DNA of 64,000 nt from Pseudomonadota bacterium (lineage in GTDB: Bacteria; Bdellovibrionota_B; Oligoflexia; Oligoflexales; CAIYRB01). Made by a program: the position numbers and the translations under genes. The notes below the pieces were generated by a model. That model did not search any database and was not told the origin of the DNA. It saw nothing but the letters and a program-made list of their open reading frames with translations. Of the stretch, positions 7,949 through 41,885 are shown in pieces (position 1 is the first letter of the stretch; each line of letters starts with the position of its first letter). The stretch is taken from the NCBI GenBank assembly GCA_026390445.1, contig JAPLFX010000033.1, positions 5,731 through 69,730 of the forward strand, in the 5' to 3' direction.

Positions 7949-8401
7949 GTGAAATGCCAGGTGTGTGGGTCTGAGGACACAAAAGTGCTGGAGAGCCGCC
8001 TCAGCGATGGCGGCCGCAGCGTTCGGCGCCGCCGTTGTTGTGTCACCTGCAATCACCGCTTTACGACCTATGAAAAGGAGGAGGTGTTTGCCTTCTCCAT
8101 CATTAAAAAAGATCTTCGGGTCGAACCCTACAGCCGCGACAAAGTCTTTCGGTCGATTCAAACCGCTTGCCAAAAGCGGCCGATCACCTATGAACAGATC
8201 GATGCGATGATCTCGCGGCTGGAAAAGACGGTGCAGGACTCTGGCGAGCGTAGCGTCGCCAGCCAAAGACTCGGCGACCTCATCATGGATAGCTTGCACG
8301 GTCTGGATAAAGTGGCTTACGTCCGCTTCGCCTCGGTCTATAAAGACTTTCAAGACCCCAGCGAATTCATGCGCGAGATCGACCGGCTGGACACCGAATA
8401 A
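7949..8401 (+). CDS. nrdR: Transcriptional repressor NrdR
   Basis: 150 aa. N-terminal zinc ribbon MKCQVCG...CVTCNHRFTTYE followed by an ATP-cone. Confidence 0.93.
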   Translation: MKCQVCGSEDTKVLESRLSDGGRSVRRRRCCVTCNHRFTTYEKEEVFAFSIIKKDLRVEPYSRDKVFRSIQTACQKRPITYEQIDAMISRLEKTVQDSGERSVASQRLGDLIMDSLHGLDKVAYVRFASVYKDFQDPSEFMREIDRLDTE

Positions 8402-8424
8402 CGCGCTTTTAAGGACCTAGACCC

Positions 8425-9054
8425 ATGTTTACTGGCATCGTCGAACGCACAGGCCGAATCCTCTCTTTGACGACACCGGCCACCGCCGCGGGAGGAGCCA
8501 TGGGCGCTATCAGCCAGCTCATCATCGACGCCGGCAAGGGTTTTGAGACACGCCCCGGCGATAGTGTGGCGATCAACGGCTGCTGCTTGACCGTCACCAG
8601 CAACAAGGTCCAGCTACTGGCCTTTGACGTCAGTCGGGAAACCCTCGCCCACACCAGTCTTGGCGAGCTCGGCGAAAACAGCGAAGTCAACCTGGAGCGG
8701 GCCCTAAAGCTCGGCGATCGCCTTGGCGGCCACCTCGTCTCCGGTCACATCGATGGTGTCGGCGTCGTCGATCGCATTTTAAAACAGCCCGATGGCTGGG
8801 AGCTGATGCTGCAGATCCCAACATCTCTGGGCCGCTACGTCATCCGCAAGGGCTCCATCTGCCTTGATGGGGTCAGCTTGACGGTCAATGCCCTCGCTGA
8901 CCACGGCCAGACCACAATCATCGGCCTCACCTTGATCCCCACAACGGTTAGTATGACGGCGCTCAAGTCGCTACACGAAGGGCAACGCATCAACGTCGAG
9001 GTCGACACCATTGGTAAGTATGTCGAACGCTTAACTCAGCTCGCCGATACCTGA
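8425..9054 (+). CDS. ribE: Riboflavin synthase (alpha chain)
   Basis: 209 aa. MFTGIVE start and a duplicated lumazine-binding repeat (AINGCCLTV / CLDGVSLTV). Confidence 0.93.
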   Translation: MFTGIVERTGRILSLTTPATAAGGAMGAISQLIIDAGKGFETRPGDSVAINGCCLTVTSNKVQLLAFDVSRETLAHTSLGELGENSEVNLERALKLGDRLGGHLVSGHIDGVGVVDRILKQPDGWELMLQIPTSLGRYVIRKGSICLDGVSLTVNALADHGQTTIIGLTLIPTTVSMTALKSLHEGQRINVEVDTIGKYVERLTQLADT

Positions 9055-21521: not shown

Positions 21522-24500
21522 TCATTGGCGCGAGACGTTGCGCGCGGCGTTGAGGGATGCTGTGGCTTGTTTGAGATAGACTTGGGCGTTCTCCACATAG
21601 GCTTTGCTCGCTGCGTCAGCAGGCAGCGTCCGGGCGCTGCCGTCGAGATAGCTCTTCCACGTCTTGACCGTATCGACGAGCAGGCGCGGATCCTGCGTCA
21701 ACGTCCACAGTCGGTGCCGACAGAGGGCGCGGTGATAATCAACGTTATGCACGGCCTGAGTGTACTCTCCCGGCGGCACAAAACGCAGGTACGGAATGAC
21801 TCCATCAAGGACTTCCAGCGCCTTACTAAAATGCGCTTGCGCTGCTTCCGGATGTTCCGCGCTCAAGCGTTCGGCGGTTAAAAACAGGGCGATACCTTCG
21901 TCGATGTGCGAGCCGATAAAGCGTTTGTCGACAAATTGCTTGACCGCGGGGTTGGCCGTCACGATGCCAAAAGCCTGGGCAGCCTTGGCCGGCTCGTCGA
22001 GGACCGTCAAATACAGCTCCCCGGCCTCATGCCGAGCCATCAAGTAGTCGCTATGTTCGAGCGGAATCTTGTTCAAAACAGCCAGGGCAGCCTCGGTCTT
22101 TCCCGCTTTGACCAAGCGTTGGGCGATAGCCCGAAAGTCCTGCTCGAGAATCACCGCCGCCTCGCCGGTCAGATCCAAGGTCCCCTGGTCGAGTTCCAGC
22201 ACCGATTTGTATGGCTTATAACCAACCGGTCCCTCGACCTCCATTTTGACAAACCCCGATGGTACCGGAATGGGGGCAGCCAGAGGCGTTTTGCCAAGGA
22301 CCTTGCCCTCGACCTTGACCACGGCGCCAAGCGGGCGCGAGTCGATCCGCAAAAAGGCCGCCTGCCGTTTGATCGTCAGGACCAATGGTTTGTCGACGTC
22401 CTGCCCGAGCTGCACCACCTGCGCCAGATCAACAAATCCCTGTTTAATCACTCGAAGCTTGCCAGAAGCCTTGCCCTCGACATAGAGGCGACCAGTGGTA
22501 TCCGTTGCGCCGATCCAGCTGTTGTTCAGATAAACATTAGCTTGGACCACCGCCGTACGTTTGCCAGCTAGCTCAGTCATCACCAGAAGTGGCGCCGCAC
22601 GCTGATCCTTCAGCTCTTTACGTGGCCTTAGGATCACTAAATCACCGCGTTCGATCGTCGCCCTAGGTACTAGACCAAAGGCTTGAGCTTTGGCCGACTT
22701 TTCCCCGACCTCGCGGATTTTGAGACTGGCGATCTTAGCGTTGACGGAACTCCGACCTAGCTTCGCGGCCTGCTGACCATAGACGTCGAGCACGTCTCCA
22801 ACCTGGACATCACGACCCTGTCCTTGGCCGAGGTTGATCGTGACCTCGTCAGCGGCTTTGCCTAGTACCGCACCCTCAAAGGGAAACACCCGGGCAATCT
22901 TTTTGGCGATCGAGGCTACGGCACGGTCCACCGCACCACGGTCCGTGAGACCGCTCAACTCTTCCTTGGCCGCACTCAGTATCTGGCCGCGGCTACCGAT
23001 GACGCTGAGCTCGAGGGTTGGCGTCGGTCCGGTGACCACGGTCGGTACCAAGACTGCATCCACCACAGTTTTCAACTCCTGGTCCTGCCACCCTGCGCGA
23101 AGGACCTCGCTGGTGGTTTTACCAGCGAGATGCACCGCCTGATCGTAAAGAGCAAACGGGTATTCTTTAAATGCAGAGGTGGCGAAGAGATGCCGTCTAG
23201 CAGCGGCTCGCAGCGACTCGCCGAAGGCACCACTCAACTCACTGAGGGTTTCTTTGTCGACGTTGCCTGCGGGCAAAGGACTGAGCACCGTCATGCGCAC
23301 GCTAGGGGGTAGATCGGGAGTGAAGGCCTTGGTCAGCTGTAGTTCACCGCCGGTCACAAAGTCGGTTTCATAGACCTCGGGTAAAAAACCCTTTGGTTTT
23401 AAACTGACCGTCAACAGATCATCGCTCTTACCGCCAAAAATATAGGAATAGCGGCCAAAGCGGTCGGTTTCACCAACCCGCTTTCCCCCGACTCGGACCT
23501 CGACTCCCGCCAATCCAGGACGATGACCGTAGGCTTGGCTGAGAGCATAGATATCGAGCGAGCGGCCTTCATCCAAGTTGATGCGCAGCTTATCCTTGGA
23601 CTGAATCGGCACGGTGATGACGGCCGTCTTATAGCCCTTTTTCGTCGCCACAAAGGTCACCAAAACCTCGGGCTTGGTTGTGAAGCGGATGACGCAACGG
23701 CCACGTTCATTGGTCGAACACGCGGTTTTGAGGGTACTGGTGTCACCTTCGCCCATCGCCACGTCGACGCCAGCCAGCGGGCTAGCTCCGGAGTAGACAT
23801 GCACGGTGAACACTTGGCTACCGCTGTTTGGATGCGCCAAACCCTTGTACGACAAGGCATCTAGGCTAGGGTCCAGAGACTTATCCACCGACTTATCCAC
23901 AGCTGGACCCGGCCCTTTGCTGGGCGCGGCGACGGCAGCGTCAACGCTGATCGAAGCCACCACTGGAGCTGGGGCCGTCGAGGCGTCATCTCCACCCACT
24001 GGGTCAGTCACCGCAGAGGAGGCAGCCACCTGGGTCAGGATATCCGGTTTAGGCGCCGCAAGCATCGCAGCAGTCGCCACTTTGGGACCTGCTGCAGCGA
24101 CGGCAGCGACGGCAGCGGTGTCGGTGACCGCCTCCGATGCTGTCGCTGGCACCGTCGATGGCACTGCCGCTGGCGTGGATATGGGAGTGTTGACTGTCTC
24201 AGTATTTGTTTCAGCTAGTGCAGCGACCTTCGCCGGCACCGCCGGTGCTGGCTTGGGTACGAAGTACAAAGTCGCAGCGACGGCAAGTTCCTGCGGACCC
24301 GATGGATCGACCTCGAAGGCCTGGTAATAGGGTGCAAAATAGTAGGTGTCGCTGTCTTTATGGATCTCCAAGCGTTTTTTAGCCCCGGCAGGTAGGCTCA
24401 CTTCGCCCTCAAAGCGCCCGGCATTGTTCGTGGCACCAAGCGACTTACCGTCAAGCTGCACCGTCGCGGCATGGACGGGTTCACCCTGGTTCGTCTTGAC

Positions 24501-24593
24501 CGCGACCTTAAGCTGCACCTTGGTCTCTTTTGCAACGCAGGCCCACATGCTGCCGAGCAGCAAGGCAATAGCCAAAGTCCGCATCGCCTTCAT
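21522..24593 (-). CDS. Large secreted multidomain protein (carboxypeptidase-regulatory-like Ig domains, Ala/Pro/Thr/Val-rich linker, PEGA-like domain, C-terminal TPR-like helical region)
   Basis: 1023 aa. Signal peptide MKAMRTLAIALLLGSMWA. Several ...G.PL.G..V.....G.TD..GR... units. A PEGA-like unit reads LRIDSRPLGAVVKVEGKVLGKTP. Low complexity is coded around 23860-24330. Confidence 0.7.
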   Translation of the reverse strand: MKAMRTLAIALLLGSMWACVAKETKVQLKVAVKTNQGEPVHAATVQLDGKSLGATNNAGRFEGEVSLPAGAKKRLEIHKDSDTYYFAPYYQAFEVDPSGPQELAVAATLYFVPKPAPAVPAKVAALAETNTETVNTPISTPAAVPSTVPATASEAVTDTAAVAAVAAAGPKVATAAMLAAPKPDILTQVAASSAVTDPVGGDDASTAPAPVVASISVDAAVAAPSKGPGPAVDKSVDKSLDPSLDALSYKGLAHPNSGSQVFTVHVYSGASPLAGVDVAMGEGDTSTLKTACSTNERGRCVIRFTTKPEVLVTFVATKKGYKTAVITVPIQSKDKLRINLDEGRSLDIYALSQAYGHRPGLAGVEVRVGGKRVGETDRFGRYSYIFGGKSDDLLTVSLKPKGFLPEVYETDFVTGGELQLTKAFTPDLPPSVRMTVLSPLPAGNVDKETLSELSGAFGESLRAAARRHLFATSAFKEYPFALYDQAVHLAGKTTSEVLRAGWQDQELKTVVDAVLVPTVVTGPTPTLELSVIGSRGQILSAAKEELSGLTDRGAVDRAVASIAKKIARVFPFEGAVLGKAADEVTINLGQGQGRDVQVGDVLDVYGQQAAKLGRSSVNAKIASLKIREVGEKSAKAQAFGLVPRATIERGDLVILRPRKELKDQRAAPLLVMTELAGKRTAVVQANVYLNNSWIGATDTTGRLYVEGKASGKLRVIKQGFVDLAQVVQLGQDVDKPLVLTIKRQAAFLRIDSRPLGAVVKVEGKVLGKTPLAAPIPVPSGFVKMEVEGPVGYKPYKSVLELDQGTLDLTGEAAVILEQDFRAIAQRLVKAGKTEAALAVLNKIPLEHSDYLMARHEAGELYLTVLDEPAKAAQAFGIVTANPAVKQFVDKRFIGSHIDEGIALFLTAERLSAEHPEAAQAHFSKALEVLDGVIPYLRFVPPGEYTQAVHNVDYHRALCRHRLWTLTQDPRLLVDTVKTWKSYLDGSARTLPADAASKAYVENAQVYLKQATASLNAARNVSRQ

Positions 24594-25645: not shown

Positions 25646-26587
25646 TCATCCAGGTTTCGGAGCACCGGTTTTGGCCACACGGCTTTGTTCCAATGGTAGG
25701 CTCGGCGCGCTTGGCACGGGCAGCACATAACCGGAGCGGCTGGCGTCGTTGCGGCCAAAAAGCTCCACGCGAACGTTGGCAAAAGCCCCCTGTTTGCCCG
25801 CCGGGATCGCGAAGGAAAAGCGCTTGCCGGTGAAGCGGCGAATACCAAATAATTCCGCTTTGTGGGGATTGACCACCACGCCGGCGGCGTCGAACATGAG
25901 ATCTTTCGGCGAACTGATGAACAGATGCTCACCCGATGCTGAGATGAATTCGGCGACGGCATAGATGTAACCCTCGACCCGCTTGCTACTACTCTTATTG
26001 GTCAGCTCAAGCCGAAGTTCCAAGCCCTCCGGGGTTGGCTCAAACCGTGCTTTACCGAGCCGGACCTCGACCGGAATCGGCGGCTGTGCTTGAGAGTGTG
26101 GCTTCACCGAATCAACCGGCTTCAGCACAGGCGTCGCATTCGCCAAGGCTGGCACTCCATGCTGTTCGCTTTGCTTGGTGGCAACCGACACAGCCGTAAG
26201 CTCAGCCGCTGGCAGCGGCTTTCCTGCAGCCACACTCGCCGATGGCCCAGGCGCTTGGCCAAGGGCCGCGACCGTTTGGACCTTGGCAGGCTGCGGATAG
26301 GCCAGGTCAAAGACATGCTCGTCGCGGACCTCGTAGTCAAAGATGCTGTTCAATGCCAGCTTTAAGCGCCCCTCTAGCTGCACCTTAGCGCTGACCAAGT
26401 GGACGGTCAGAAAGACACTACCGAGAGACCACAGGAACAGACCAACCAAACCTGCAATCACTAGGCGCAAGCGCCCCACGGAAATCGTCAAAGTGCGCAT
26501 CCGCGCTGAGTCGATAAAATAGATGATGCTCATCTGGCGAGGTCTTGGCCGATGAGCCTTGGACGCATCTGGGTGGGACTTGCCCAT
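25646..26587 (-). CDS. Membrane-anchored protein, unknown function (start uncertain)
   Basis: The track ORF extends to 26779. One strong TM (LRLVIAGLVGLFLWSLGSVFLTVHLV) follows the internal Met codons. I chose ATG 26587, but 26779 and other internal starts are possible. Confidence 0.55.
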   Translation of the reverse strand: MGKSHPDASKAHRPRPRQMSIIYFIDSARMRTLTISVGRLRLVIAGLVGLFLWSLGSVFLTVHLVSAKVQLEGRLKLALNSIFDYEVRDEHVFDLAYPQPAKVQTVAALGQAPGPSASVAAGKPLPAAELTAVSVATKQSEQHGVPALANATPVLKPVDSVKPHSQAQPPIPVEVRLGKARFEPTPEGLELRLELTNKSSSKRVEGYIYAVAEFISASGEHLFISSPKDLMFDAAGVVVNPHKAELFGIRRFTGKRFSFAIPAGKQGAFANVRVELFGRNDASRSGYVLPVPSAPSLPLEQSRVAKTGAPKPG

Positions 26588-26808
26588 GATACCCCGTTCA
26601 TGCAACTCTTTTATTTGGAAGCGCTGGTAATATTGGGAGTTTATGCGGACTTGAAGGCAAACGCAACCGACCTGTGCTAGGAATGGGCCGTTGGGGGCGC
26701 CCTGGCAAGCCGCCATGAATCTGGATAACCCAGCACGGTCACTAGTCAATCTCTGCCCCTTTTGCATTAGCGCAGGCATCCGTTAGACTACCTGGAAAAG
26801 GGACGTGC

Positions 26809-30928: not shown

Positions 30929-33607
30929 TCAATGCTTCGCCTCGCCACTGCCCTGCGCAAATCCTGCAACCATTTCAATCAGCTTCTCAACTTCAAATGG
31001 TTTAGAAATCATATCAAAATTTGGATCAGTCCTATCGCCCAAAACCGCCTGCTTGGTCAACAACTCTCCTGTCGCCATGACAAAAGGCGTTGTTAGGTGC
31101 AACTGGCGAAACTCTAGGTAGAAGGCCATGCCGTCCATCCCATTCATCCGAAGGTCAGAAATCACCAGATCAAATCTCCGCTGATCACGGCGAAGCAAAT
31201 CAAGTGCTGCCTCTCCACCATCGACACTTTCGACTGTGGCAAAATATTCCAAGAGCAATTCAGTAAAGGTTTCGCGCAGGTCACCATCATCCTCGACATA
31301 TAGGACCGATGCCTGGCGCATATCCCGCGGTTTGTGATACACGCCTTTGCCCACGGTGCTGTCTGTTTGGAGCTGATGTTGCTTAGGGATCTTTTGTTTT
31401 GGCAAGGAAAGGGTAAACGTCGATCCCTGATCCAGTTTTGATTGCACGCTGACATCGCCACCGTGACTTCTCACGATTTGGCGGACGTTGGCCAGTCCTA
31501 GTCCAGTGCCAGCATTGGCCTTCTTGGTGGAGAAAAAAAGATCAAAAATCCGCTCGAGGTGCTGCGGATCGATTCCAGTACCCTGATCTTTCACCGAAAA
31601 TAATACCAACTCGCGTGCGTTATCTTCTGCCATGGTGATTTCAATCACACCACTTCTACCAATTTGGGCGTCTTTAGCGTTGTTGATCAGATTCAATAGG
31701 CATTGCAGAATCTCGTTGCCGTTACCAACGATGAGGAGTTGTCCCGGTGCCGTATGATCACGAATCTCGAAGTTGAACTGACGTCCTTCCATGGTATGAA
31801 CAAAAGCCGTAAGATCGTTCAATATGGACCGGCAGTCGGCAAAGGTATAGTCCGCTGCATCGGCGCGAGAATGGCGCAGCAGGCCCTGAACTAAGATGGC
31901 ACCTCGTTCGCAGAACATCTTGATGCGACCGACAGCTGACTCAATTTTTTTACCATCGGACGTGCCAGAGATCAGCTGCGCACCGCCTTGAATGCCAAGC
32001 AAGATATTATTAAAATCATGGGCAATTCCCGTCGATAGTTGGCCAAGCGAGCTAAGTCGTTCGAGTTGTGAGATTCTTACTTGAGCCCGGTGGCTCAACA
32101 TGCGAAAATCTTCAAGAGCCGAATCGACGATATGTAAGTTAAATCTGGCAACAGTCGTCAGGACTTCTTCGGGCCAGGGGATCGACCGATTCTTCCTGAT
32201 TCCCTTCCACTTTTCGAAGGACGACCTTGGCGACAGAACGGATCCGGCCGCATTGGTGTTGACGGCCTTTTCCGGATTGCCAGCCCAGTAGATCGTTTCG
32301 ATCTGCTCGGGCTGAAACCAAAGGAGAAAGCAGTTCTTCGACGTATTTGAGAAATTGACAGGCAACCTAATGGCGATCATGCCACTCGCCGTATCCTTGA
32401 TCGCTTCGGCATCTTCATAGTCGCGCTTCAAATGGTTGGTCTGATACAGCTTTTGATCGGTTAAAATGCTGCCAATCCAGCGACCCAATTTGTGGATGTC
32501 ACTCAGACTTGGGCACACTCCCCAGGTCGTCACCGTTTCATGCTCGATCAAACACAGGCCGCGTGCCCCGGCCGCAAGGAGCAGGGACTCATGGTGGATC
32601 GCTAACGATTCGGCTACGGAGCGATTCCGTTTTAAGTCGGCGATGAACTTTTCTGCGATCAACCCGTTGGTGAACATCCGAACCCTGCGGTGTAGCTCCT
32701 TCCAAGACCCAATTGCAAACGAAGCAACCGCTCCAACTGAGATGCACATTTGCCGACAACTCGGGTCCAAATACCGCGGCCCCTGATAGTGATGGCAAGC
32801 GATGAGGCCCCAAAGCTCGCCATCAGCGATCAAAGAGACGACCAAGGTCGCGCTCACCAGCATATTCTTGAGATACTGAACGTGCATGGGTGAAATGCTA
32901 CGCAAATGACTCATCGTCAGGTCCAGCGGTCCCAAATTTGCTGCAGAAACAACCGCGACCGGCGCATAGTTTACATCGGAAATCATACGAATTAAATTTT
33001 GTTTGTACAGGGCCCTCGCCTGAACCGGAATATCGGTAGCCGGGTAATGCAGTCCAAGCAGTGGTTCAAGGTCTTCATTTTTAGCTTCGGCAACGACGGC
33101 ACCATGGGCATCTTCCTCAAACTGATAGACCATGACGCGGTCATATCCAGTCAACTCTTTGACCAAGCCAGGTAAGCAACTCACGACTTCGTCCAACGAC
33201 TGTTGCCGACCGATGTCCAGTATGCTCTGATGGAACGTCTTTAGCATCGAGGGGGTAGCCGCTTCGTCCTGCGGCTGCAGTTCGACGACCCACTCGTCGT
33301 TGGCTTTAAAGCATCGCCCAACCAAAGAGCGCCCTCTCAGACGAACCTTCTTATCGACGTCGCCAGGATTTTTCGCGACGTCGCGCAACTGCGGATCGAT
33401 CACCGCGATGTCTTGATTGAGTAAGTCCGCTCCCCGCATTCCGATAATCTCGCACAGATTCTCGGAAATCCTCGTAATCCTGCCGATCGCATTCACCGCC
33501 ACGAGGTAGCCAAAGGGCTGAATCAGTCCGGGAATATGAATGGCTTCATGGTCGCAGCTCGTCCCATCAATCGGGGTTGCAGCGACAAGATATTCGGCTT
33601 GATTCAC
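30929..33607 (-). CDS. bphP: Bacteriophytochrome-type hybrid sensor histidine kinase (PAS-GAF-PHY, HisKA, HATPase_c, C-terminal receiver)
   Basis: Chromophore-Cys context TSCDHEAIHIPGLIQPFGYLV, GAF motifs YPATDIPVQARALY and SPMHVQYLKNM, H-box GIAHDFNNIL, GTGLGLA, and receiver VLYVEDD...ISDLRMNGMDG. I prefer GTG at 33607 (GGAGGA 6 nt upstream); the track start is 33658. Confidence 0.9.
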   Translation of the reverse strand: MNQAEYLVAATPIDGTSCDHEAIHIPGLIQPFGYLVAVNAIGRITRISENLCEIIGMRGADLLNQDIAVIDPQLRDVAKNPGDVDKKVRLRGRSLVGRCFKANDEWVVELQPQDEAATPSMLKTFHQSILDIGRQQSLDEVVSCLPGLVKELTGYDRVMVYQFEEDAHGAVVAEAKNEDLEPLLGLHYPATDIPVQARALYKQNLIRMISDVNYAPVAVVSAANLGPLDLTMSHLRSISPMHVQYLKNMLVSATLVVSLIADGELWGLIACHHYQGPRYLDPSCRQMCISVGAVASFAIGSWKELHRRVRMFTNGLIAEKFIADLKRNRSVAESLAIHHESLLLAAGARGLCLIEHETVTTWGVCPSLSDIHKLGRWIGSILTDQKLYQTNHLKRDYEDAEAIKDTASGMIAIRLPVNFSNTSKNCFLLWFQPEQIETIYWAGNPEKAVNTNAAGSVLSPRSSFEKWKGIRKNRSIPWPEEVLTTVARFNLHIVDSALEDFRMLSHRAQVRISQLERLSSLGQLSTGIAHDFNNILLGIQGGAQLISGTSDGKKIESAVGRIKMFCERGAILVQGLLRHSRADAADYTFADCRSILNDLTAFVHTMEGRQFNFEIRDHTAPGQLLIVGNGNEILQCLLNLINNAKDAQIGRSGVIEITMAEDNARELVLFSVKDQGTGIDPQHLERIFDLFFSTKKANAGTGLGLANVRQIVRSHGGDVSVQSKLDQGSTFTLSLPKQKIPKQHQLQTDSTVGKGVYHKPRDMRQASVLYVEDDGDLRETFTELLLEYFATVESVDGGEAALDLLRRDQRRFDLVISDLRMNGMDGMAFYLEFRQLHLTTPFVMATGELLTKQAVLGDRTDPNFDMISKPFEVEKLIEMVAGFAQGSGEAKH

Positions 33608-33842
33608 GACTATTCCTCCAAGTCCGCCAATGAAAGCGAACCAGTGACTACCTGCCACATGGCGGCCGCGCAGCGCGCGGCTGGACGGGAGCTTGGATCA
33701 TAGATCCGCCTCCCCAAACCAGCAAGCGCCGGATGTTAAGCCCTAAATAGGAAAACGCGTGAACCTCAGGCTCAGCTGAGCATCCACGCGCCTAAGTCTA
33801 GTGACCTTGGCCTGCGGCATCATGCCGCGCCGGACCGGCTTA

Positions 33843-34499
33843 TTACTGCAGCAGCGACCCAGGAGCCGGGACAATGACTTCACCTTCTTTGGTACCGGGC
33901 TTGAAAAAGATGCTGTCATTTTTCTTAATGCCTTTGATGTCGCCCTTGACCTTCACTTTGTCGCCGCTTTTAACCTGAGGTGTCTTAGAGTCCATGGCCT
34001 TGGCCAAAATGACACCGCCTTCCGACTTGATCACCAAGGCTTTGACTTCGCCTGCACCGGCAGGCCGTTCGGTCTTTTTAGCGCGAATGCTGCCTTCAGA
34101 AGTCGAGCTCTCCAACGCCAATGCCACATCCTGACCAGCGCGAATCTTAGTCTTTGCGACCTGTGCCAGAAAAGCCTTTTCGTCGCCTGTGAAGACCACG
34201 CTGACCGCCGCCGCACCCTTAGCGGACACCTTCACACCAAAGGTCGCACCGAGCTTCGATTCAAGACTCGACTTGACCGCGTCTGGTGTCACCATCACGC
34301 CTTTACCTAGATCTCCGGCCGGATCAAGCTGGAAGGAATACTCACCAGCCTTCACCTTCGACCATGAAGTCGCCAGTCCCGGCTTGGGCGTGTCACCATC
34401 GAGCTCGATCAGGGTTTTCGCCGCCGCGAACACCTGTTGCGCCGCAAACAAACTCAGACTTGCCAACATCACTCGTACCCACATTGCCGCAACCTTCAT
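33843..34499 (-). CDS. Secreted protein, unknown function
   Basis: ATG 34499 lies behind GGAGG. Signal peptide MKVAAMWVRVMLASLSLFAAQQVFAA. Lys/Gly/Val-rich C-terminal half. Confidence 0.55.
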   Translation of the reverse strand: MKVAAMWVRVMLASLSLFAAQQVFAAAKTLIELDGDTPKPGLATSWSKVKAGEYSFQLDPAGDLGKGVMVTPDAVKSSLESKLGATFGVKVSAKGAAAVSVVFTGDEKAFLAQVAKTKIRAGQDVALALESSTSEGSIRAKKTERPAGAGEVKALVIKSEGGVILAKAMDSKTPQVKSGDKVKVKGDIKGIKKNDSIFFKPGTKEGEVIVPAPGSLLQ

Positions 34500-34569
34500 C
34501 TTCAACCTCCGAAGTGGCACAAACCTGCGCCTGTTCAACAAAGCTCTGGTAGTCCCAGACTCTACTACC

Positions 34570-35121
34570 TTAAGGAAATGCCTGATAGGTGATCACGACC
34601 TTGACATCCGACTTTACCGCAGCAGCGTCCTTGACCGCTGTCCCCGTCACAGGCTTGGCTGCAAGGGCGGGGTCCTCTGGTGACTTACCGTCGACGATGA
34701 CTTTTTTGCCAACCAATTTCTTAAGTCCAGGCGGAACATCGCTAAGGGTGATGACCTTGCCACCTTCGCCGCTAACGGAATAAACGCCGTCCTTGACGGC
34801 CAGGCTACCAACCAGGGCATCGCGGCCGCTCGACATCCTTAAGACTTTAACATCGTCGGCAACAAAGCATTCCCGCTGACCGCCCTTTTTCGTTTGCCAC
34901 CGACCTGAAACCTTGACGACCAGTGGCGTCAAGTGGCGAATGCGCTGCTCCACATCCGAGCCGCAAAGCTGCGGCCCCAACGTCTCCTTCTCCGGTGTAA
35001 TCAAGGTCTGAGCATCAAAGGAGCGCCCCACCACACGAACCAAGCCTTCGATCTCATCGGCCCAAGCCGGACCTGCAAAACCAGAGACCAGCAAGGTGAG
35101 GAGCCATGGACGAATGTTCAT
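34570..35121 (-). CDS. Secreted 2-Cys protein, paralog A of an uncharacterised family
   Basis: Signal peptide ending AWA. Shares GPxLC, RIRHL, GxWQ, GGxxxCFxA, VLRMxxGRxAxVGxL, GxxGK, GxxVIxDxK and a terminal VVxxYxxxP with ORF 37037..37552. Confidence 0.65.
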   Translation of the reverse strand: MNIRPWLLTLLVSGFAGPAWADEIEGLVRVVGRSFDAQTLITPEKETLGPQLCGSDVEQRIRHLTPLVVKVSGRWQTKKGGQRECFVADDVKVLRMSSGRDALVGSLAVKDGVYSVSGEGGKVITLSDVPPGLKKLVGKKVIVDGKSPEDPALAAKPVTGTAVKDAAAVKSDVKVVITYQAFP

Positions 35122-35136: not shown

Positions 35137-36963
35137 CTATTTAATTTGGACGACCGCTACGGCCGTATTTGGCAAGGTATCTTTAGTCTTAAAGCCGACT
35201 TTCAGAGTGCTATCAGTTACCGTGTATAGGTAAGGACAAGTCGCATAGTATTGCAGCTCCGGTGTGGTCACCGCATCCTTAGCAACCTCCGTCCAGGTGT
35301 GCGCCTTTGGTAAGCCGGAAAAGTTATTGTAGTGCATGCCGTAAGAGCGATCAGCCTCGCCGACCAGGTTAGTGGCCTTTTGCGGGTCCTGAACCGTGTA
35401 TTTAGCGTCCGTGTCGCTAATACCTGATCCATCGATCGCCAGAGCACCAAAATAATTGCTGATGGCATCAGTCCAAGCACCGCCAAACTTCTCAGCTAAG
35501 TTCTGCGGTCCGACATGAGTCGCGCTCTTGACGACATCGGCAAGGTACTTCAGCCCGTCACCTCCCGTCGCCACCCCATTGGTAAAGGTCACGCCACCCT
35601 TTTGGCTGATCAAGTAATAGATGAGAGTCTGTGCAGCGCCCCGGTTTAAGGCCAAGTCATCCGCTGCGGAAAGCACCGGATTGACGAGATCCTTATCGTA
35701 CCAGGTGGTCAAAAAGGTTTTGGCAAAGTCATCGAAGTTTTCTCCGCCATGCCCGAACAAGTCCTCGGTATAGTGCGCAATTCCCTCATCGACCTCCGGA
35801 GTCTCCAGGGTCCATTTCTTAGGATCGGCCGATACCTTGCGCGCGCGGAAGTAATTCATAATCGCATGCTGCATCTCATGGGCAATCGTGCCATGCCACA
35901 AGCGCTTATTTTTCGCCGCGTCAACGGCTGCCCCGACGTTTTTACCGACCTTACTGATGTCGGACGCCATGTATATCATCGGCATGTTCGTGCCAACGGT
36001 ATCAGCCGTATCATCCGACATCTTTGCGATAAAGGCCCCCGACACCTGCAGCGCGGCGAGGTTTGGCCACAGTTTGGTGTCGGAAAAGTCGACGATCGTA
36101 AAAATCGGTTTAAAGGTATAGCCATTCACCACGGCAAAGGGATCCTTATAAATCACCTCTTTGTAGCGACGAATCACCTCCTTGATCGAGGCCTCGATCG
36201 TCGCCTTGTCGCCTCCGGTGACAGGATTCGATAGGTAAACGATGCAGTAGTCGGCGGTGCTGACCACCGAGCTTGCGGCCGCAGGAATGACTTTGTCGGT
36301 CGGCACCAAGGAGGCGTTAGGCACCGCGACGGTGCCTCCAGCACTTGGGCAGCTGCTGCTGGCGAGGTTAAAACGAGCGGACCCCAACTTAGGCCGCGTC
36401 GCCTCCGAACTGACCGCACTGCGGTACATCGATTCGACCTCTCCAGGACCATCCGCCGCGGCAAAGCCCGGAGCGTCCTCTGCGTCCACACGCTTCGCCA
36501 AGCGCCAAAACTCATCGCCCTGCGCTGCCCCGAGGCGAGGCTCAAAGCGATTGAGAAGGGTCCTAAGCGCGTCGTCTTTTTGCCGCCAGTTCATGGTCGG
36601 TATCGACCCCGTAGCCGTTGCCACGGACGCTGGCACCTCCGGTTGGGAGTTTAGTAGCTTGGAGCTAGCGGCCGCCGCAGCCACGGACAGCGTTAGGGTA
36701 AACTTCTGAGCACCTGCGCCGGTGACGGTTGCCACATCACCTAAAATCACCGGCATCAGAACAAACTGCGAACCGACGGCAGCCGCAGAGAAATCGATCG
36801 ACGCCAGGCCGCTAACTGCAGTCGTTACCGACCCTTTGCCAGCCACAGCCGTCGGAGACGTGGTCGTCGGTTCCTTATCCTTTTTATCGGTTGTGCCGCA
36901 AGCATGCAGAGCGCCGCCTAGGGCCAGCAACGTCGCGACTCGACTCATTCTCAGTCCATGCAT
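35137..36963 (-). CDS. Lipoprotein with HEXXH zinc-metalloprotease motif (gluzincin-like; possibly M30/hyicolysin-like)
   Basis: ATG 36963 lies behind AAGGAG. Lipobox LALGGALHACG. HEMQH is coded at 35866-35880 within WHGTIAHEMQHAIMNYF, followed by VDEGIAHYTED (candidate third ligand Glu). Confidence 0.7.
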   Translation of the reverse strand: MHGLRMSRVATLLALGGALHACGTTDKKDKEPTTTSPTAVAGKGSVTTAVSGLASIDFSAAAVGSQFVLMPVILGDVATVTGAGAQKFTLTLSVAAAAASSKLLNSQPEVPASVATATGSIPTMNWRQKDDALRTLLNRFEPRLGAAQGDEFWRLAKRVDAEDAPGFAAADGPGEVESMYRSAVSSEATRPKLGSARFNLASSSCPSAGGTVAVPNASLVPTDKVIPAAASSVVSTADYCIVYLSNPVTGGDKATIEASIKEVIRRYKEVIYKDPFAVVNGYTFKPIFTIVDFSDTKLWPNLAALQVSGAFIAKMSDDTADTVGTNMPMIYMASDISKVGKNVGAAVDAAKNKRLWHGTIAHEMQHAIMNYFRARKVSADPKKWTLETPEVDEGIAHYTEDLFGHGGENFDDFAKTFLTTWYDKDLVNPVLSAADDLALNRGAAQTLIYYLISQKGGVTFTNGVATGGDGLKYLADVVKSATHVGPQNLAEKFGGAWTDAISNYFGALAIDGSGISDTDAKYTVQDPQKATNLVGEADRSYGMHYNNFSGLPKAHTWTEVAKDAVTTPELQYYATCPYLYTVTDSTLKVGFKTKDTLPNTAVAVVQIK

Positions 36964-37015
36964 GCCAACTCCTTTGTTCTGACCAAACAGATTGCTCACC
37001 ACCAAATGATGGACC

Positions 37016-37037
37016 AATTGACGCTAAGACGTCAATT
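37016..37037. repeat. Perfect 8-bp inverted repeat (aattgacg-N6-cgtcaatt) in an intergenic junction
   Basis: Read directly from the sequence. It spans the end of paralog B and the spacer before the HEXXH lipoprotein gene. Confidence 0.6.
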
Positions 37038-37552
37038 CAGGGATAGCGACGGTAGCTTACGACGACCTTATTAACATCCATGATCGCCGGATTGGCCATT
37101 GGCTTGAGATCGAGGATCACTTGTTCCCCCATCATCTGCCGCAGACGCGGCGTCAGATCCGCTAGGCGTTCGATTTTGCCGTCGTCCCCGGTGAGCAGAT
37201 AGCCACCACCGCTTTCAGAGGCGCTGAGCCGACCCACCGCTGCCTCGCGGCCACCTACCATGCGCAGAACCTGGAACGACGATGCTGCAAAGCAGTCTTT
37301 AACCCCGCCCTGACGCAACTGCCAGGTGCCCACAGTTCGCACCTGTAGCTGACTCAGGTGGCGAATCCGGTAGCCGATCTCTCCCGGGCACAATCTAGGG
37401 CCGTGGTGACTCTTATCAATATCGATATGCGTCTCGGTATGAAGATCGCCGCCGCTGACGTAAACCACCCCGACTAGGTCCTCGGCTTGAAGCGGCGTCG
37501 CACAGCAAAGCCAGAGCCACAACCAGGACCACGGAGACTTGATCCAACTCAC
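37037..37552 (-). CDS. Secreted 2-Cys protein, paralog B of the same uncharacterised family
   Basis: Trp-rich signal peptide MSWIKSPWSWLWLWLCCATPLQA. Conserved blocks are shared with 34570..35121. The start overlaps the upstream stop by 4 nt. Confidence 0.65.
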   Translation of the reverse strand: MSWIKSPWSWLWLWLCCATPLQAEDLVGVVYVSGGDLHTETHIDIDKSHHGPRLCPGEIGYRIRHLSQLQVRTVGTWQLRQGGVKDCFAASSFQVLRMVGGREAAVGRLSASESGGGYLLTGDDGKIERLADLTPRLRQMMGEQVILDLKPMANPAIMDVNKVVVSYRRYP

Positions 37553-38196
37553 TTTGCCGCTCCATTTAAAGGGGACGTCGATGCCGGCACCGCCGGCGGT
37601 GTGTGCGGGGCCGGCACCTGAGCGCTACAGGTGATGGCAGTTAGCCTTTCTGGGTCTAGATTGCGCCTGCAGGCTTCCTTATTCAACTTGGCCTTAGCCT
37701 CGCACTCGCTGGCCCCAGCTGCTTTGACAGCCAAATCAGGATTTAGATGCTGGCTGCCGTAGGCATCCGCACGGCACTTGGTCGGCTGACCATGCGCCTG
37801 ACACACCGCGCTTGCCGGTGGACAATGGCCGTTGCTAGCGTCCGGGACGCACTGGACTTCACCGAGCTTAGACGGCAAAAGGCCTGCAGCACATATTTGG
37901 CGATGCAGGTTTAGTTTCGCAGCGCAGCCATTGGGCCCCCAAGCGATCGACTGCTCGGCAACAGACTGGGCCTTACCAGCATAGGCTGCGGCGGAACAAA
38001 CCATCGGGTTGTAATCCATCGTGCAAACGGTGTTGCGAATCGGACATTCGGCGACAGAGGGCACATCTGCTACTGCAGGCGCCGTTGCTTTGGCCACGGG
38101 AGCAGCAACAGTCGCTGGGACTGGTACCACCGTTGGAGTTGTGCACGCTGCGACCATCAGCAGACTACAGCAAACATAAATGCGCATAGATCCCAT
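37549..38196 (-). CDS. Cys-rich lipoprotein with a tandem 6-Cys repeat
   Basis: Lipobox LLMVAAC. Two repeats (residues 51-116 and 125-190) have identical spacing C-x6-C-x8-C-x23-C-x10-C-x13-C. The ATG shares one nucleotide with the flgD stop (TGATG). Confidence 0.65.
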   Translation of the reverse strand: MGSMRIYVCCSLLMVAACTTPTVVPVPATVAAPVAKATAPAVADVPSVAECPIRNTVCTMDYNPMVCSAAAYAGKAQSVAEQSIAWGPNGCAAKLNLHRQICAAGLLPSKLGEVQCVPDASNGHCPPASAVCQAHGQPTKCRADAYGSQHLNPDLAVKAAGASECEAKAKLNKEACRRNLDPERLTAITCSAQVPAPHTPPAVPASTSPLNGAAK

Positions 38197-39404
38197 CAGG
38201 CCTTCTGGGCTTTAGCTGACGCTAGTTTATCGGATTTAACGGGGACCGGAGAGGGCTTTTCGACCTTCACAGCAGGGACTTGCGCCGCCGGAACTGGTCC
38301 AGGAACCGAGATCGGCAGCCGGACCGCAGTCTGCTCGCCAGAGCTGCCGTTGTTTAGACCAGTCGAGGCGGCGCCGGCACGCTTAGGCTCGGGTGTCTGC
38401 GCGTTTTGCTGCGCTGCTACCGCCACCGTTTTGGCCGGCGCCGGCGACCCTTCAGCGACGGCATCGCCAGCTAATGGTGGCACAAGATTTTCAACACTTG
38501 CCGGCCGAACCTTGCTATAGCCTTGCGAACCCACGGACGCCACCTCGCGCACACCAACCTTACCAACTGCGGTGTAAAACGAACCGCCGCCGTCGTGCAG
38601 ATCAACCCCAGTGACCTGGAGGGTGCTGGACACAGGTGCCGCTAAAGTCTGACCCTGCATATCCGTGGCTTGAATGCTAAAGGTGTAGGCACCGTCCGAC
38701 AGCGGTTTACCATTCTTATTGCCGCCGCTCCATTCCAGCTTGGTTTCCCCCGGCGCCACGTGGCCTAAGTCCTTGCTGGCAACAACCACCCCGGCACCGT
38801 CACGCACTTCAAGAATGGTCTTCACCGACTCGCTGTCGAGTTTGAAGCTCGCGTCCGTGGCCACTTTGCCACCCTCGACCATCAACTTGCCGTTATCCAG
38901 CTTGATGTCCTTACCGACAAAGTTGAGCAGGGTGACGGCTCGGCCAAGGGCCTCGTCGTTCTGCATCTTCTCGAGGTTTTTATTGACATTCATCATCTGC
39001 TCTAGACCGTGGAACTGCGCCAATTGCGCGGCCATCTGCGAGCTGTTGTCGGGGCTCATGGGATCCTGGTTGCGCATCTGCGTTACGAACAGTTTCAAAA
39101 AGGCGTCCTTGTCCAACTCGTTTTGCGGTTTACGCGTCACGCCTTGGTTTGCCTTGGCGGCCATCATCTTGGCAAACTCATCATCGGACTTAGCCATGCG
39201 CAGTTGATCGCCGTTTTTCTGTGCGACGCGCTCGCGGGCGGTATCATCATTCGAGTTCAGCAGAATATCGCGAAAGCTAGCTTTATCAGGCGCTCCGCCG
39301 TCCACCGCTTTCGCCGCGTCCGGCGCATTCACCTTGACATCGCTGAAGTCGCGCGTCGCGGGTGACTCGAAGGGCTTAAATTTGGCTTCCGTCGCTGCAT
39401 TCAT
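38196..39404 (-). CDS. flgD: Flagellar hook assembly/capping protein FlgD
   Basis: N-terminal FlgD block DKDAFLKLFVTQMRNQDPMSPDNSSQMAAQLAQFHGLEQ. FlgD Ig-like region LEWSGGNKNGKPLSDGAYTFSIQATD. Extended Pro/Ala-rich C-terminus. Confidence 0.88.
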   Translation of the reverse strand: MNAATEAKFKPFESPATRDFSDVKVNAPDAAKAVDGGAPDKASFRDILLNSNDDTARERVAQKNGDQLRMAKSDDEFAKMMAAKANQGVTRKPQNELDKDAFLKLFVTQMRNQDPMSPDNSSQMAAQLAQFHGLEQMMNVNKNLEKMQNDEALGRAVTLLNFVGKDIKLDNGKLMVEGGKVATDASFKLDSESVKTILEVRDGAGVVVASKDLGHVAPGETKLEWSGGNKNGKPLSDGAYTFSIQATDMQGQTLAAPVSSTLQVTGVDLHDGGGSFYTAVGKVGVREVASVGSQGYSKVRPASVENLVPPLAGDAVAEGSPAPAKTVAVAAQQNAQTPEPKRAGAASTGLNNGSSGEQTAVRLPISVPGPVPAAQVPAVKVEKPSPVPVKSDKLASAKAQKA

Positions 39405-39437: not shown

Positions 39438-41819
39438 TCAGGCACGGACTGCGATCCTACCTTGATCGTTGACTTGACCTTGCAGCATTGCGGCCGGTAC
39501 CCGCGGCCGTGCGATCGTACTCACAGGGTTGACCTGAGGTGTGCGGACTTGTCCCCGCCATTCATCCTGCGACCGACCACCCATTTGTTGCCCGCCGCCC
39601 TGCTGGTTCATCCCAGTGAATTGCTGCTGGGACTGCGGCTGCCGGCCACTCACGCCGACCTCGACCTTGCCGAGCTGGACGTTTTGGATCGCTAAGGCGC
39701 CTTTCAATTGGTTCAGGTCGGCGGCGATGGCATCACGAGCGCGGTCAGATCCGGCGAGTACGCGCAGATCGATCTTGTCTTTGTTCATATTTAGGGCCAA
39801 CTCAAGCGGTCCGAACTCAGGTGAACTCAAGTCGAGTCGCACCGTACCGCCACCCTGCTTTACCAACATCGTCGCGTGGTTGACCACCTTCTGCATCAAA
39901 TCGAAGCGATTCTGCACGTTTAGTGGCTCAGTAGTGGCGGCGGCCGACGTTGCAAAGCTAGTCGTATGCGTTTGCTGGGTCTGCGGTTGGTGTAGACTCA
40001 GGCCTAGCTCGCGGAGGCCTTTACCGTGGTCCGATTGCTGACCAGGATCACGGCTTGGCTGCTCGCCGCCCGAAGAGTTGCGGTCGCCACTCTTCTCCTC
40101 AGAGGTCATCATGAGCATCGGTGACTGCAGGCGAAGGTCCTGCATCGGCTGCGCTGAGCTTTGCGGCGCATCGAACCTAATCGTTTCCACCTTGGTCAGG
40201 CCAAAGACATCGGAGTTATTTTGCATCAGGTCACGGAGAAGCGCCTTTTGATCGAGAGCCTCAAAACGAGCGCCCTGGGAGGAGGCTGAGGCCGGCATCA
40301 CCGTCGCGACCTCCGTGGTTTTAACCTGCATCATCACCACGCCTGGGTCATTGGCTCGCCCCTTAAGCAACGCAAAGGCTGCCTCGGGTTTACCTGATAC
40401 ATCGAGGCCACGGCTAAGTATCTGTTCGTTGAGAAAAGGGTCAAAGGACACTGCTCGCTGCGTCGGCTCAGGGTCTGCTAGCACCACCGTATCAGCAGCC
40501 CGCATCTTGGCGCCGAGCTGAGCAAACGCATCAAAAGAAGCTTTGTTTAATGTTGCTGGCTGGTCAAAGTCGTTCCTCGGGCGTGCCAGTGGGGCATCTT
40601 GCAGCGTCAAGACATCGAGAGAACCATCTGGATTGGCTCTAGCGATGACGGCTTCGAGAGAGTCATCGACGCCATTCGGTGCCCTGAGCATTGAAGCGGC
40701 GACGACCACGCGCTCGTCCGCGGGAGCCAATGGAGTCGCCTTAAGCAGGTCAGAGATTGGCCGTTGCGTTCTCGGCAATCCCTGCATAGCTGCCATCAGA
40801 GCTTGCGGCGACAGCTCATCGGACTGGCTAGGCCGCTCAGGTAACGCTTCGGCCGGTATCTGCAAGCCAGGGTTTAATCCGTTTAGCCCGTTTAATCCAG
40901 GATAAGGCTTGGGCTCCAACGGTGTTGGAGATAGCGTGTTCGGCTTGGCAACCCAGGCAAAGCCGATCGGATCCACATCGGCGACTAATGGGATGGTCGG
41001 AGTCACCGGCGTTGGCCCTGGCATCTGCTGCTGGCCTAACTGACCCAGCCGGTCCGCCTGAATTGGCTGCACCGGCTGTGGCTGCAGGGCAACAGGCGCA
41101 ACCAGGTCGGCAGTCGTGGGGTTCAGCGCCTGCGCCCGATTGATATAGGGCGCCAAGCCTTCAAGCGGCAGATTAGCCTTCAGTTGCGTCAGCTCAGCCA
41201 TCACCCTTTGCGGGTCAATGCCCATGGCCTTGAGAAAGGCGTTTGGCGTGAGCTTTTGCCCAGGATCCAACCCGACGGCCTGAACCTGCTGGAGCATTTG
41301 AGGCGGTAGTCCAAGATCATTAACAAGGTCGGCAACAGCTGCCGGCTTGTTTAGGTACTCGGGAATCTCATCGGTCGATAGCGCGTCATTGATGAATTTA
41401 TTGCCCGTCACCAGAGCTGGAATGTCGGTTGCAGGAACCCTATCGAGTTTCCCGGTTAACATAGCGACTGCGGGAGATTTATCGACGTCATGTTTGACTG
41501 CCGCCGAAGTCCTTTTCGGCGCCTGACCAGCCGTCGTCGACGAGTCATTGACCTGTGCGTCTTGTGTACCCCTGGTGGGAGTTGGCCTGGCCGCCGTGCC
41601 TGCAGCCGCAGCTGAGGTAGCTTGGCTACCACTGGGAGCCGCGCTCGGCTTCATCAGCTCATCGCTAAAACTCCGCCCGCTGCCCGCCTTAGCTGCCGGC
41701 ACGACAGACGGCTGATTGACACGCGTGCCCTCCGGCGCTGGCGCCGCGGTCATCGGCATGGGGTTTTGCGAGGTGAGGAGACTGGCGGCCACTAAAGTTT
41801 TCTCCGTTGAATCCGACAA
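39438..41819 (-). CDS. fliK: Flagellar hook-length control protein FliK
   Basis: Long Pro/Gln/Ala-rich low-complexity body. C-terminal FliK domain GGGTVRLDLSSPEFGPLELALNMNKDKIDLRVLAGSDRARDAI...LKGAL. The track start is TTG 41819; GTG 41792 (GGAG upstream) is an alternative. Confidence 0.8.
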   Translation of the reverse strand: MSDSTEKTLVAASLLTSQNPMPMTAAPAPEGTRVNQPSVVPAAKAGSGRSFSDELMKPSAAPSGSQATSAAAAGTAARPTPTRGTQDAQVNDSSTTAGQAPKRTSAAVKHDVDKSPAVAMLTGKLDRVPATDIPALVTGNKFINDALSTDEIPEYLNKPAAVADLVNDLGLPPQMLQQVQAVGLDPGQKLTPNAFLKAMGIDPQRVMAELTQLKANLPLEGLAPYINRAQALNPTTADLVAPVALQPQPVQPIQADRLGQLGQQQMPGPTPVTPTIPLVADVDPIGFAWVAKPNTLSPTPLEPKPYPGLNGLNGLNPGLQIPAEALPERPSQSDELSPQALMAAMQGLPRTQRPISDLLKATPLAPADERVVVAASMLRAPNGVDDSLEAVIARANPDGSLDVLTLQDAPLARPRNDFDQPATLNKASFDAFAQLGAKMRAADTVVLADPEPTQRAVSFDPFLNEQILSRGLDVSGKPEAAFALLKGRANDPGVVMMQVKTTEVATVMPASASSQGARFEALDQKALLRDLMQNNSDVFGLTKVETIRFDAPQSSAQPMQDLRLQSPMLMMTSEEKSGDRNSSGGEQPSRDPGQQSDHGKGLRELGLSLHQPQTQQTHTTSFATSAAATTEPLNVQNRFDLMQKVVNHATMLVKQGGGTVRLDLSSPEFGPLELALNMNKDKIDLRVLAGSDRARDAIAADLNQLKGALAIQNVQLGKVEVGVSGRQPQSQQQFTGMNQQGGGQQMGGRSQDEWRGQVRTPQVNPVSTIARPRVPAAMLQGQVNDQGRIAVRA

Positions 41820-41869: not shown

Positions 41870-41885
41870 AGCAGGAAGCGTGCCA
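41870..41885 (-). promoter_or_regulatory. Sigma-54 (-24/-12) type promoter upstream of fliK
   Basis: The minus strand reads TGGCACGCTTCCTGCT. Against the consensus TGGCAC-N5-TTGCW there is one mismatch and correct GG/GC spacing. It lies about 50-80 nt upstream of the candidate fliK starts. Confidence 0.5.

Follow-up and report, generated by a model that had tools for sequence, protein, structure and literature searches.

The gene X1, which directly follows the flagellar hook cap gene flgD, encodes a lipoprotein built from two copies of a six-cysteine module that is absent from the domain and structure databases we searched. X1 lies on the minus strand of a 64,000-nucleotide stretch of DNA (referred to here as the window) from contig JAPLFX010000033.1, which belongs to the metagenome-assembled genome (MAG) of a Pseudomonadota bacterium (GenBank assembly GCA_026390445.1, positions 5,731 to 69,730). 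Our tentative preference, which we put somewhat short of an even chance, is that X1 is a lineage-specific flagellar accessory lipoprotein that is produced alongside the hook cap and hook ruler proteins and binds a periplasmic partner. For both the flagellar role and the binding mechanism, we draw solely on genomic context.

A sequence-only reading of this DNA had described X1 as a lipoprotein with two modules that follow the pattern C-x6-C-x8-C-x23-C-x10-C-x13-C and share the motifs CPxxxxVC and AY, and all of these points were borne out. The lipobox reads MVAAC18 followed by TT, and Cys18 is invariant in the 77 family members aligned (alignment A3). A relaxed lipobox pattern fits 73 of the 83 members whose N-termini are complete; of the others, most carry a Cys directly behind the hydrophobic stretch. 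Asp was not found at position +2 after the lipobox Cys in any of the 73 members scored; by analogy with the E. coli +2 rule, X1 would be sorted to the outer membrane. As read from the sequence, the cysteines of X1 fall at residues 9, 10, and 18, at residues 51, 58, 67, 91, 102, and 116 (C1 to C6 of module 1), and at residues 125, 132, 141, 165, 176, and 190 (C1 to C6 of module 2), giving gaps of 6, 8, 23, 10, and 13 residues in both modules and 8 residues between the two sets. The modules align without gaps, with 20 identities over 66 positions, and BLASTP likewise pairs the two repeats without gaps (E=6e-9); judged by this similarity, the repeats are a true internal duplication and not a chance likeness. 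In the linker between them, V117, P118, D119, A120, G123, and H124 are invariant among close homologues. The tether that precedes module 1 differs in both length and sequence between homologues.

A word-indexed search of 5.8 billion proteins returned eight clusters of X1 homologues with 37 to 93% identity, all derived from metagenomes or MAGs. In each of the eight, the spacing is identical, and the lipobox Cys and all 12 module cysteines are kept. The window protein itself is GenBank entry MCX6108911.1, which is labeled a “hypothetical protein” and comes from a “Proteobacteria bacterium” MAG, and the X1-bearing lineage as a whole carries the GenBank labels “Proteobacteria bacterium,” “Deltaproteobacteria bacterium,” or “bacterium.” Comparison of X1 with its 92%-identical homologue from locus L007 gave a ratio of nonsynonymous to synonymous substitution rates (dN/dS) of 0.21 overall, 0.13 in the modules, and approximately 0.3 in the tether and tail. 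By this measure, X1 is under purifying selection.

The module defines a larger family. An exhaustive HMMER search of 1.84 billion cluster representatives (50% identity) with a single-repeat profile (A2) matched 127 proteins at E≤1e-3, 89 of them at E≤1e-10. Counted by hidden Markov model (HMM) domains, and after seven obviously unrelated long repetitive proteins had been dropped, 49 proteins contain two copies of the module, 44 contain three, and 28 contain one. In nearly all of the family proteins, a Cys comes after the N-terminal signal peptide. The three-module arrangement is probably the ancestral form; in X1, the C-terminal tail takes the place of the third module that is present in most relatives. 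The C4-x10-C5 spacing and the 8-residue inter-module linker are near-invariant across the family, and the loops span 4 to 9 (C1-C2), 8 to 14 (C2-C3), and 14 to 24 (C3-C4) residues, with x21 in place of x23 in the third module. Profiles of repeat classes 1, 2, and 3 are mutually homologous (hhalign probability of 99.4 to 99.8%). Neither Pfam nor NCBIfam gave a meaningful match to the module when X1, its neighbors, 10 single-module relatives, and 77 family members were scanned. When the Protein Data Bank (PDB) was searched by sequence with X1 as a single query and with two profiles, only chance matches (E>0.04) or none were obtained, and the repeat profiles had zero matches to PDB sequences at E≤10. 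A literature search likewise found nothing on an X1-type protein. By these comparisons the module, which had been left unassigned in the initial reading, is an undescribed domain that is absent from Pfam, NCBIfam, and the PDB.

We surveyed 21 loci using gene tables and tblastn; a search of genomes with alignment A1 returned four MAG contigs. X1 directly follows flgD, itself preceded by fliK and on the same strand, in 15 of the 15 loci with upstream sequence, which represent about six lineages, and flgD was found directly upstream of X1 in the window, L001 to L012, L014, L020, and L021. The X1 proteins of these flgD-linked loci are 31 to 92% identical to the window protein, and the GC content of the loci ranges from 31 to 61%. 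The gene order is fliK-flgD-X1-X2-X3-X4-X5, with a two-module X1, in the window, in L007, in L001 to L003, and in the group comprising L004 to L006 and L008 to L010. Three-module X1 genes are found as flgD-X1-X3-X4-X5 in L011, as flgD-X1-X3-X5 in L014, as flgD-X1 followed by a convergent phospholipase gene on the short contig L012, and as fliK-flgD-X1 followed by a convergent RNase G gene in L020 (31% GC) and L021. The conserved unit is fliK-flgD-X1, and X2 to X5 are additions in one sub-lineage. No flgE gene lies next to flgD in the window or the related loci. FlgD of the window is 402 amino acids long and has a long Ala/Pro-rich C-terminal extension past its Pfam domains.

The flgD stop codon and the X1 start codon overlap in the sequence TGATG, the TGA sharing one base with the ATG at 38194-38196, and the X1 stop codon overlaps the GTG start codon of X2 (GTGA at 37549-37552). 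Start/stop overlap between flgD and X1 recurs in L004, L012, and L021. Of the initial proposal that X1 is coupled to flgD, the overlap itself is real; translational coupling of flgD, X1, and X2 would be expected from these overlaps. The sole promoter-like element that we found for the unit lies upstream of fliK. This element, TGGCACGCTTCCTGC, is of the sigma-54 type; the window has five such matches in all. Equivalent elements were present upstream of fliK in L001/L003 (TGGCACGTTTCCTGCT), L020 (TGGCACGATAACTGCT), and L004/L006 (TGGCATGAATCGTGCT), that is, in three of the four other lineages checked, in genomes ranging from 31% to 57% GC. No such element was found upstream of fliK in L021, where fliK overlaps an upstream hydrolase gene. 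An Rfam scan of the window gave no matches. Since X1 is part of a putative sigma-54-type fliK-flgD-X1 transcription unit and often overlaps flgD, it would be made during assembly of the flagellar hook.

The fold of X1 was predicted using AlphaFold2 on the family alignment and on a single-module alignment. The predicted local distance difference test (pLDDT) score was 84 to 91 across both modules and below 50 at residues 1 to 47 and 198 to 215, and the single-module model had a mean pLDDT of 86 and a predicted template modeling (pTM) score of 0.72. Module 1 was modeled with strands at residues 65-69 and 83-87, a helix at 90-103, and a strand at 114-118, and module 2 was modeled with strands at 139-146 and 157-161, a helix at 164-177, and a strand at 185-192. 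In these models, each module opens with an irregular N-terminal segment that contains C1 and C2. The first strand of the beta hairpin that follows carries C3, C4 and C5 sit at the beginning and the end of a 14-residue helix, and C6 lies in the closing strand. A Foldseek search of the PDB gave best E values of 0.066 for the full-length model and 0.56 for the single module, neither of them significant. Ribosomal eL20/LX-like chains and double-stranded RNA-binding domain chains were considered as fold relatives and rejected; their Foldseek matches were nonsignificant, with query-normalized template modeling scores of at most 0.5.

Natural variants point to a disulfide map. Wherever a full-length repeat in the alignment to the profile is genuinely short of cysteines, they are missing in pairs. 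Module 1 of P0085, P0091, and P0096 lacks C1 together with C5 (with Thr, Glu, or Val at C5 and no cysteine ahead of C2), while module 2 of P0089 lacks C2 together with C4 (Glu stands at C4). These paired losses suggest disulfides C1-C5 and C2-C4 and therefore, by elimination, C3-C6. The same strictly pairwise loss, together with export of the protein, argues for disulfides and against a metal site, and we rejected a metal-cluster reading of the cysteines on these grounds. Both the helix before the fifth cysteine and the disulfide stabilization proposed in the sequence-only reading agree with the models and the variants.

These features would fit the following course of events. X1 would be exported by the Sec and Lol pathways, and the lipidated Cys18 and the tether of about 30 Ala/Pro-rich residues would hold the two modules, each a compact alpha/beta domain of about 66 residues, in the periplasm. 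Three disulfides would lock each module, with C1-C5 and C2-C4 stapling the N-terminal loop along the helix. As the length of the 8-residue linker is invariant, the module array is probably stiff. Anchored to a membrane (the outer membrane, by the +2 rule), X1 would then serve for binding or as a spacer, locked by oxidation and resistant to proteases. Its variable N-terminal loops would bind a partner in the periplasm, either at the basal body or during the rod-to-hook stage.

Several observations count against this picture. The flagellar role rests on adjacency, with no homologue of known function, and the sigma-54 element is a sequence match only. In L020, a 595-nucleotide gap with no convincing open reading frame (ORF) separates flgD from X1 (8324-8918), whereas these genes overlap or almost abut in the other lineages. 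The whole neighborhood, from L21/L27 to RNase G/waaA, is syntenic across lineages, and adjacency may partly reflect this general synteny. The AlphaFold2 models were built on shallow alignments of 9 and 14 rows, and the disulfide map depends on two independent loss events. Finally, a distant single-module subfamily (P0110-P0140; spacing 8, 8, 21-23, 10, 15), whose members are either secreted proteins of about 100 amino acids or proteins of about 230 to 280 amino acids with the module as their C-terminal domain, is always encoded beside a divergent YceI gene and has mnmA and a radical-SAM gene upstream. This context is nonflagellar, and the module is therefore not specific to flagella. The module is a general periplasmic building block, and the multi-module lipoprotein is its flgD-linked form.

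The synteny in all lineages and the nonflagellar single-module relatives would also suit an account in which X1 is a generic periplasmic disulfide-rich lipoprotein that stabilizes the envelope or binds a ligand or metal and has no flagellar function, being merely located at the end of the fliK-flgD operon. So would the slot after X1, which takes unrelated insertions (X2 to X5 and, in the window, a phytochrome kinase gene). We regard this account as rather unlikely, given that the overlap with flgD recurs in the window, L004, L012, and L021, that adjacency to flgD holds down to 31% identity and from 31 to 61% GC while other neighbors change, and that the only promoter-like element found for the unit is upstream of fliK.

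The sequence-only reading had likened the module 1 segment C58-T-M-D-Y-N-P-M-V-C67 to Kazal inhibitors and had set the likeness aside because the later cysteine spacing does not fit. Our comparisons agree with that exclusion at the level of sequence. Pfam models Kazal_1, Kazal_2, and Kazal_CFAI gave no match at E≤1 to X1 and 77 relatives. A control profile made from ten Kazal sequences, all confirmed by Pfam (E values of 1e-10 to 1e-21), was matched by hhalign with a probability of 1.6% for all 278 repeats and of 2.6%, 0.7%, and 0.5% for repeats 1, 2, and 3, respectively. No Kazal chain was among the best 50 Foldseek hits in the PDB, and no hit of any kind in that search scored better than E=0.56. 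The spacing of the module (6, 8, 23, 10, 13) is conserved family-wide and differs from the roughly 7, 7, 10, 2, 17 of classical Kazal domains, in which C2-x7-C3, C3-x10-C4, and C4-x2-C5 or C4-x6-C5 are characteristic; the module has 13 more residues in its hairpin, and three helical turns separate its C5 from C4. X1 also differs in being bacterial, lipid anchored, and encoded in a flagellar operon.

The inferred connectivity and the predicted order of elements are nevertheless Kazal-like, and the resemblance therefore exceeds the CTMDYNPMVC segment. Like Kazal domains (PF00050, ovomucoid/SPINK; PF07648, follistatin/SPARC), the module has six cysteines with a 1-5/2-4/3-6 connectivity, deduced here from the paired losses. 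It would have an N-terminal loop stapled to a helix, and the prediction places a hairpin, the helix, and a C-terminal strand in the same order; C3 falls in strand 1, C6 in the last strand, and C4 and C5 at the N-terminus of the helix and within it, respectively. Behind C2, module 1 carries C-T-x-[DE]-Y-x-P (CT[ML][DE]Y.P), with Asn two residues before C4, which recalls the ovomucoid third domain (CTLEYRPLC...NKC; sequence verified as Kazal_1). From C4 to C5, classical Kazal domains have an offset of 3, those of the follistatin/SPARC type (control sequences 6 and 10) one of 7, and the X1 module one of 11; all three would put C5 on the same face of the helix. We conclude that the module would act as a disulfide-stapled scaffold in the manner of Kazal domains. 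Three features that define the Kazal family failed the test, and homology to it is not supported. Because the profile comparison fails (probability of at most 2.6%), we do not file the X1 module as a Kazal domain.

These likenesses underlie the proposal that X1 is a canonical protease inhibitor, a very remote or convergent Kazal-like tandem in which the exposed C2-C3 loop of module 1 (C58-T-M60-D-Y-N-P) forms the reactive-site loop with Met60 as P1. Serine proteases would thereby be kept from attacking the periplasm or flagellar parts under construction. Met60 is invariant among nine close homologues, and tandem arrays are typical of Kazal inhibitors, as they are of X1-type proteins. The Kazal-like loop motif is, however, restricted to a sub-group, where it occurs in module 1, and lacks family-wide conservation, no serine protease is encoded among the conserved neighbors, and the 1-5/2-4/3-6 connectivity also occurs in beta-defensins. 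Together with the failed Pfam, hhalign, and Foldseek comparisons, these points make an inhibitor function unlikely. A further reading appears to us distinctly unlikely. In it, the module is an unrecognized bacterial offshoot of the Kazal/ovomucoid architecture (its C1-C5 disulfide slid by two further helical turns and its hairpin grown), and X1 is a dedicated periplasmic component of hook assembly in an uncultured, deltaproteobacteria-like lineage. X1 might then be a tethered scaffold or inhibitor at the site where the rod reaches the outer membrane and the hook, capped by FlgD, begins.

Pairing of X1 with the HEXXH lipoprotein X3, encoded two genes downstream in the window and suggested as its partner in the sequence-only reading, is not conserved. 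X3 follows X1 in three of six lineages and is absent nearby in L012, L020, and L021. X3 therefore cannot be an obligate partner on which X1 depends; the partners that are conserved are fliK and flgD. A dedicated partnership, with X1 acting as an inhibitor, chaperone, or substrate adaptor of X3, would draw on the fact that X3, where present (the window, L001 to L011, and L014), always lies on the same strand as X1, one or two genes downstream of it, that both proteins are lipoproteins, and that secreted metalloproteases can be paired with periplasmic inhibitors, as for serralysin and Inh. Yet X1 always adjoins flgD and not X3, X2 can intervene, and the change from three modules to two does not track X3, since L011 has both a three-module X1 and X3. 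There are also only 20 X3 clusters against approximately 120 X1-type representatives, although the X3 family search was word-indexed at 90% identity and is not directly comparable with the more sensitive, exhaustive search at 50% identity used for the X1 repeat. We consider this partnership very unlikely and retain the flagellar accessory role as the preferred explanation for X1.

X3 likely starts at the ATG at 36963 and not at the listed TTG at 37017; its homologues begin at the position equivalent to that ATG. All 20 clusters of the X3 family have an N-terminal lipobox-like Cys and the motif HExxH...DEG[IL]AH..ED, and no Pfam domain was found in family members. Sub-threshold likenesses were to flagellinolysin (NF033876, E=0.017, the best named match) and to astacin (E=0.37). 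Assignment of X3 to the metzincins was rejected, as the local astacin match lacks the third His and the Gly. The DEGxAH..ED motif downstream of HExxH suggests a gluzincin-like site, and X3 is probably a zinc peptidase, as far as its motifs indicate.

The remaining cassette genes encode exported proteins. X2 and X4 are paralogues, each with two cysteines and a weak, sub-threshold match to DUF5818. X2 was found only in lineages with a two-module X1; L011, with three modules, has only an X4-type gene, whose 173-amino-acid product matches both X2 (38%) and X4 (44%). The best-conserved cassette gene is X5 (98% identity in L007, 78% in L001, and approximately 50% in the L004 lineage), and its product has a faint match to a family 5 solute-binding protein (NikA/Opp5A, E=0.0036, residues 40 to 104). 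Between X5 and the convergent RNase G gene, the window encodes a 909-amino-acid bacteriophytochrome hybrid histidine kinase/response regulator (30929-33658, minus strand). The kinase gene is a lineage-specific insertion, because it is absent at this position in all related loci. Two further minus-strand ORFs, at 21522-24593 (1,023 amino acids) and 25646-26779 (377 amino acids), had no NCBIfam match at E≤1e-5.

Table 1. Features of X1, its transcription unit, and the downstream cassette (window coordinates unless a locus is named)
Feature	Coordinates	Strand	Basis or remark
X1 gene, 215-amino-acid lipoprotein	37549..38196	minus	ORF; 8 homologous clusters; dN/dS
X1 signal peptide and lipobox, residues 1-18, MGSMRIYVCCSLLMVAAC	38143..38196	minus	read from sequence
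X1 Ala/Pro-rich flexible tether, residues 19-48	38053..38142	minus	pLDDT <50; variable among homologues
X1 six-Cys module 1, residues 51-116	37849..38046	minus	spacing; AlphaFold2 model
X1 inter-module linker VPDASNGH, fixed 8 residues	37825..37848	minus	invariant residues, constant length
X1 six-Cys module 2, residues 125-190	37627..37824	minus	spacing same as module 1
X1 Pro-rich C-terminal tail, residues 191-215, and stop codon	37549..37626	minus	pLDDT <50 at 198-215
flgD, hook cap protein, directly upstream of X1	38196..39404	minus	Pfam FlgD 1.1e-19, FlgD_ig 3.4e-14
fliK, hook-length control protein, first gene of unit	39438..41819	minus	orthologues with Pfam Flg_hook; tblastn synteny
Sigma-54-type promoter-like element TGGCACGCTTCCTGC, about 50 nucleotides upstream of fliK	41871..41885	minus	one mismatch to TGGCAC-N5-TTGC
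X2, 171-amino-acid exported protein, paralogue of X4	37037..37552	minus	weak DUF5818 match, E=0.01
X3, HEXXH lipoprotein	35137..37017	minus	20 homologous clusters
X4, 183-amino-acid exported protein	34570..35121	minus	
X5, 232-amino-acid exported protein, signal peptide, last cassette gene	33843..34541	minus	
Single-module relatives	L017 6216-6908; L018 8001-8351; L019 700-1050		

Together, these results define a domain family with approximately 120 cluster representatives, a putative fixed framework of three disulfides, and a testable disulfide map, and they add a candidate lineage-specific flagellar gene, in a fliK-flgD-X1 unit with a sigma-54-type promoter-like element and without the usual flgE neighbor. 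Should the Kazal-like reading be true, this architecture would extend to bacterial lipoproteins. Practical impact is limited, as the hosts are uncultured and no function has been demonstrated. Periplasmic elaborations of flagellar motors are being actively studied, and in the literature searched we found no description of disulfide-knotted tandem modules among them.

Among known systems other than the Kazal domains, the periplasmic inhibitors ecotin and Inh/AprI have unrelated folds, and X1 shows no consistent linkage to protease genes; they are, even so, small exported protease binders, some of them encoded beside a metalloprotease gene, as X1 is encoded two genes from X3. FlgP of the basal disk in Campylobacter and Vibrio and the L-ring lipoprotein FlgH show no sequence similarity to X1 (NCBIfam and Pfam found nothing) and are beta-rich ring formers without disulfide-knotted tandem modules. 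What X1 would share with them is an N-terminal lipobox, a place in flagellar gene clusters as a lineage-restricted addition to the core, and, by inference for X1, a periplasmic location.

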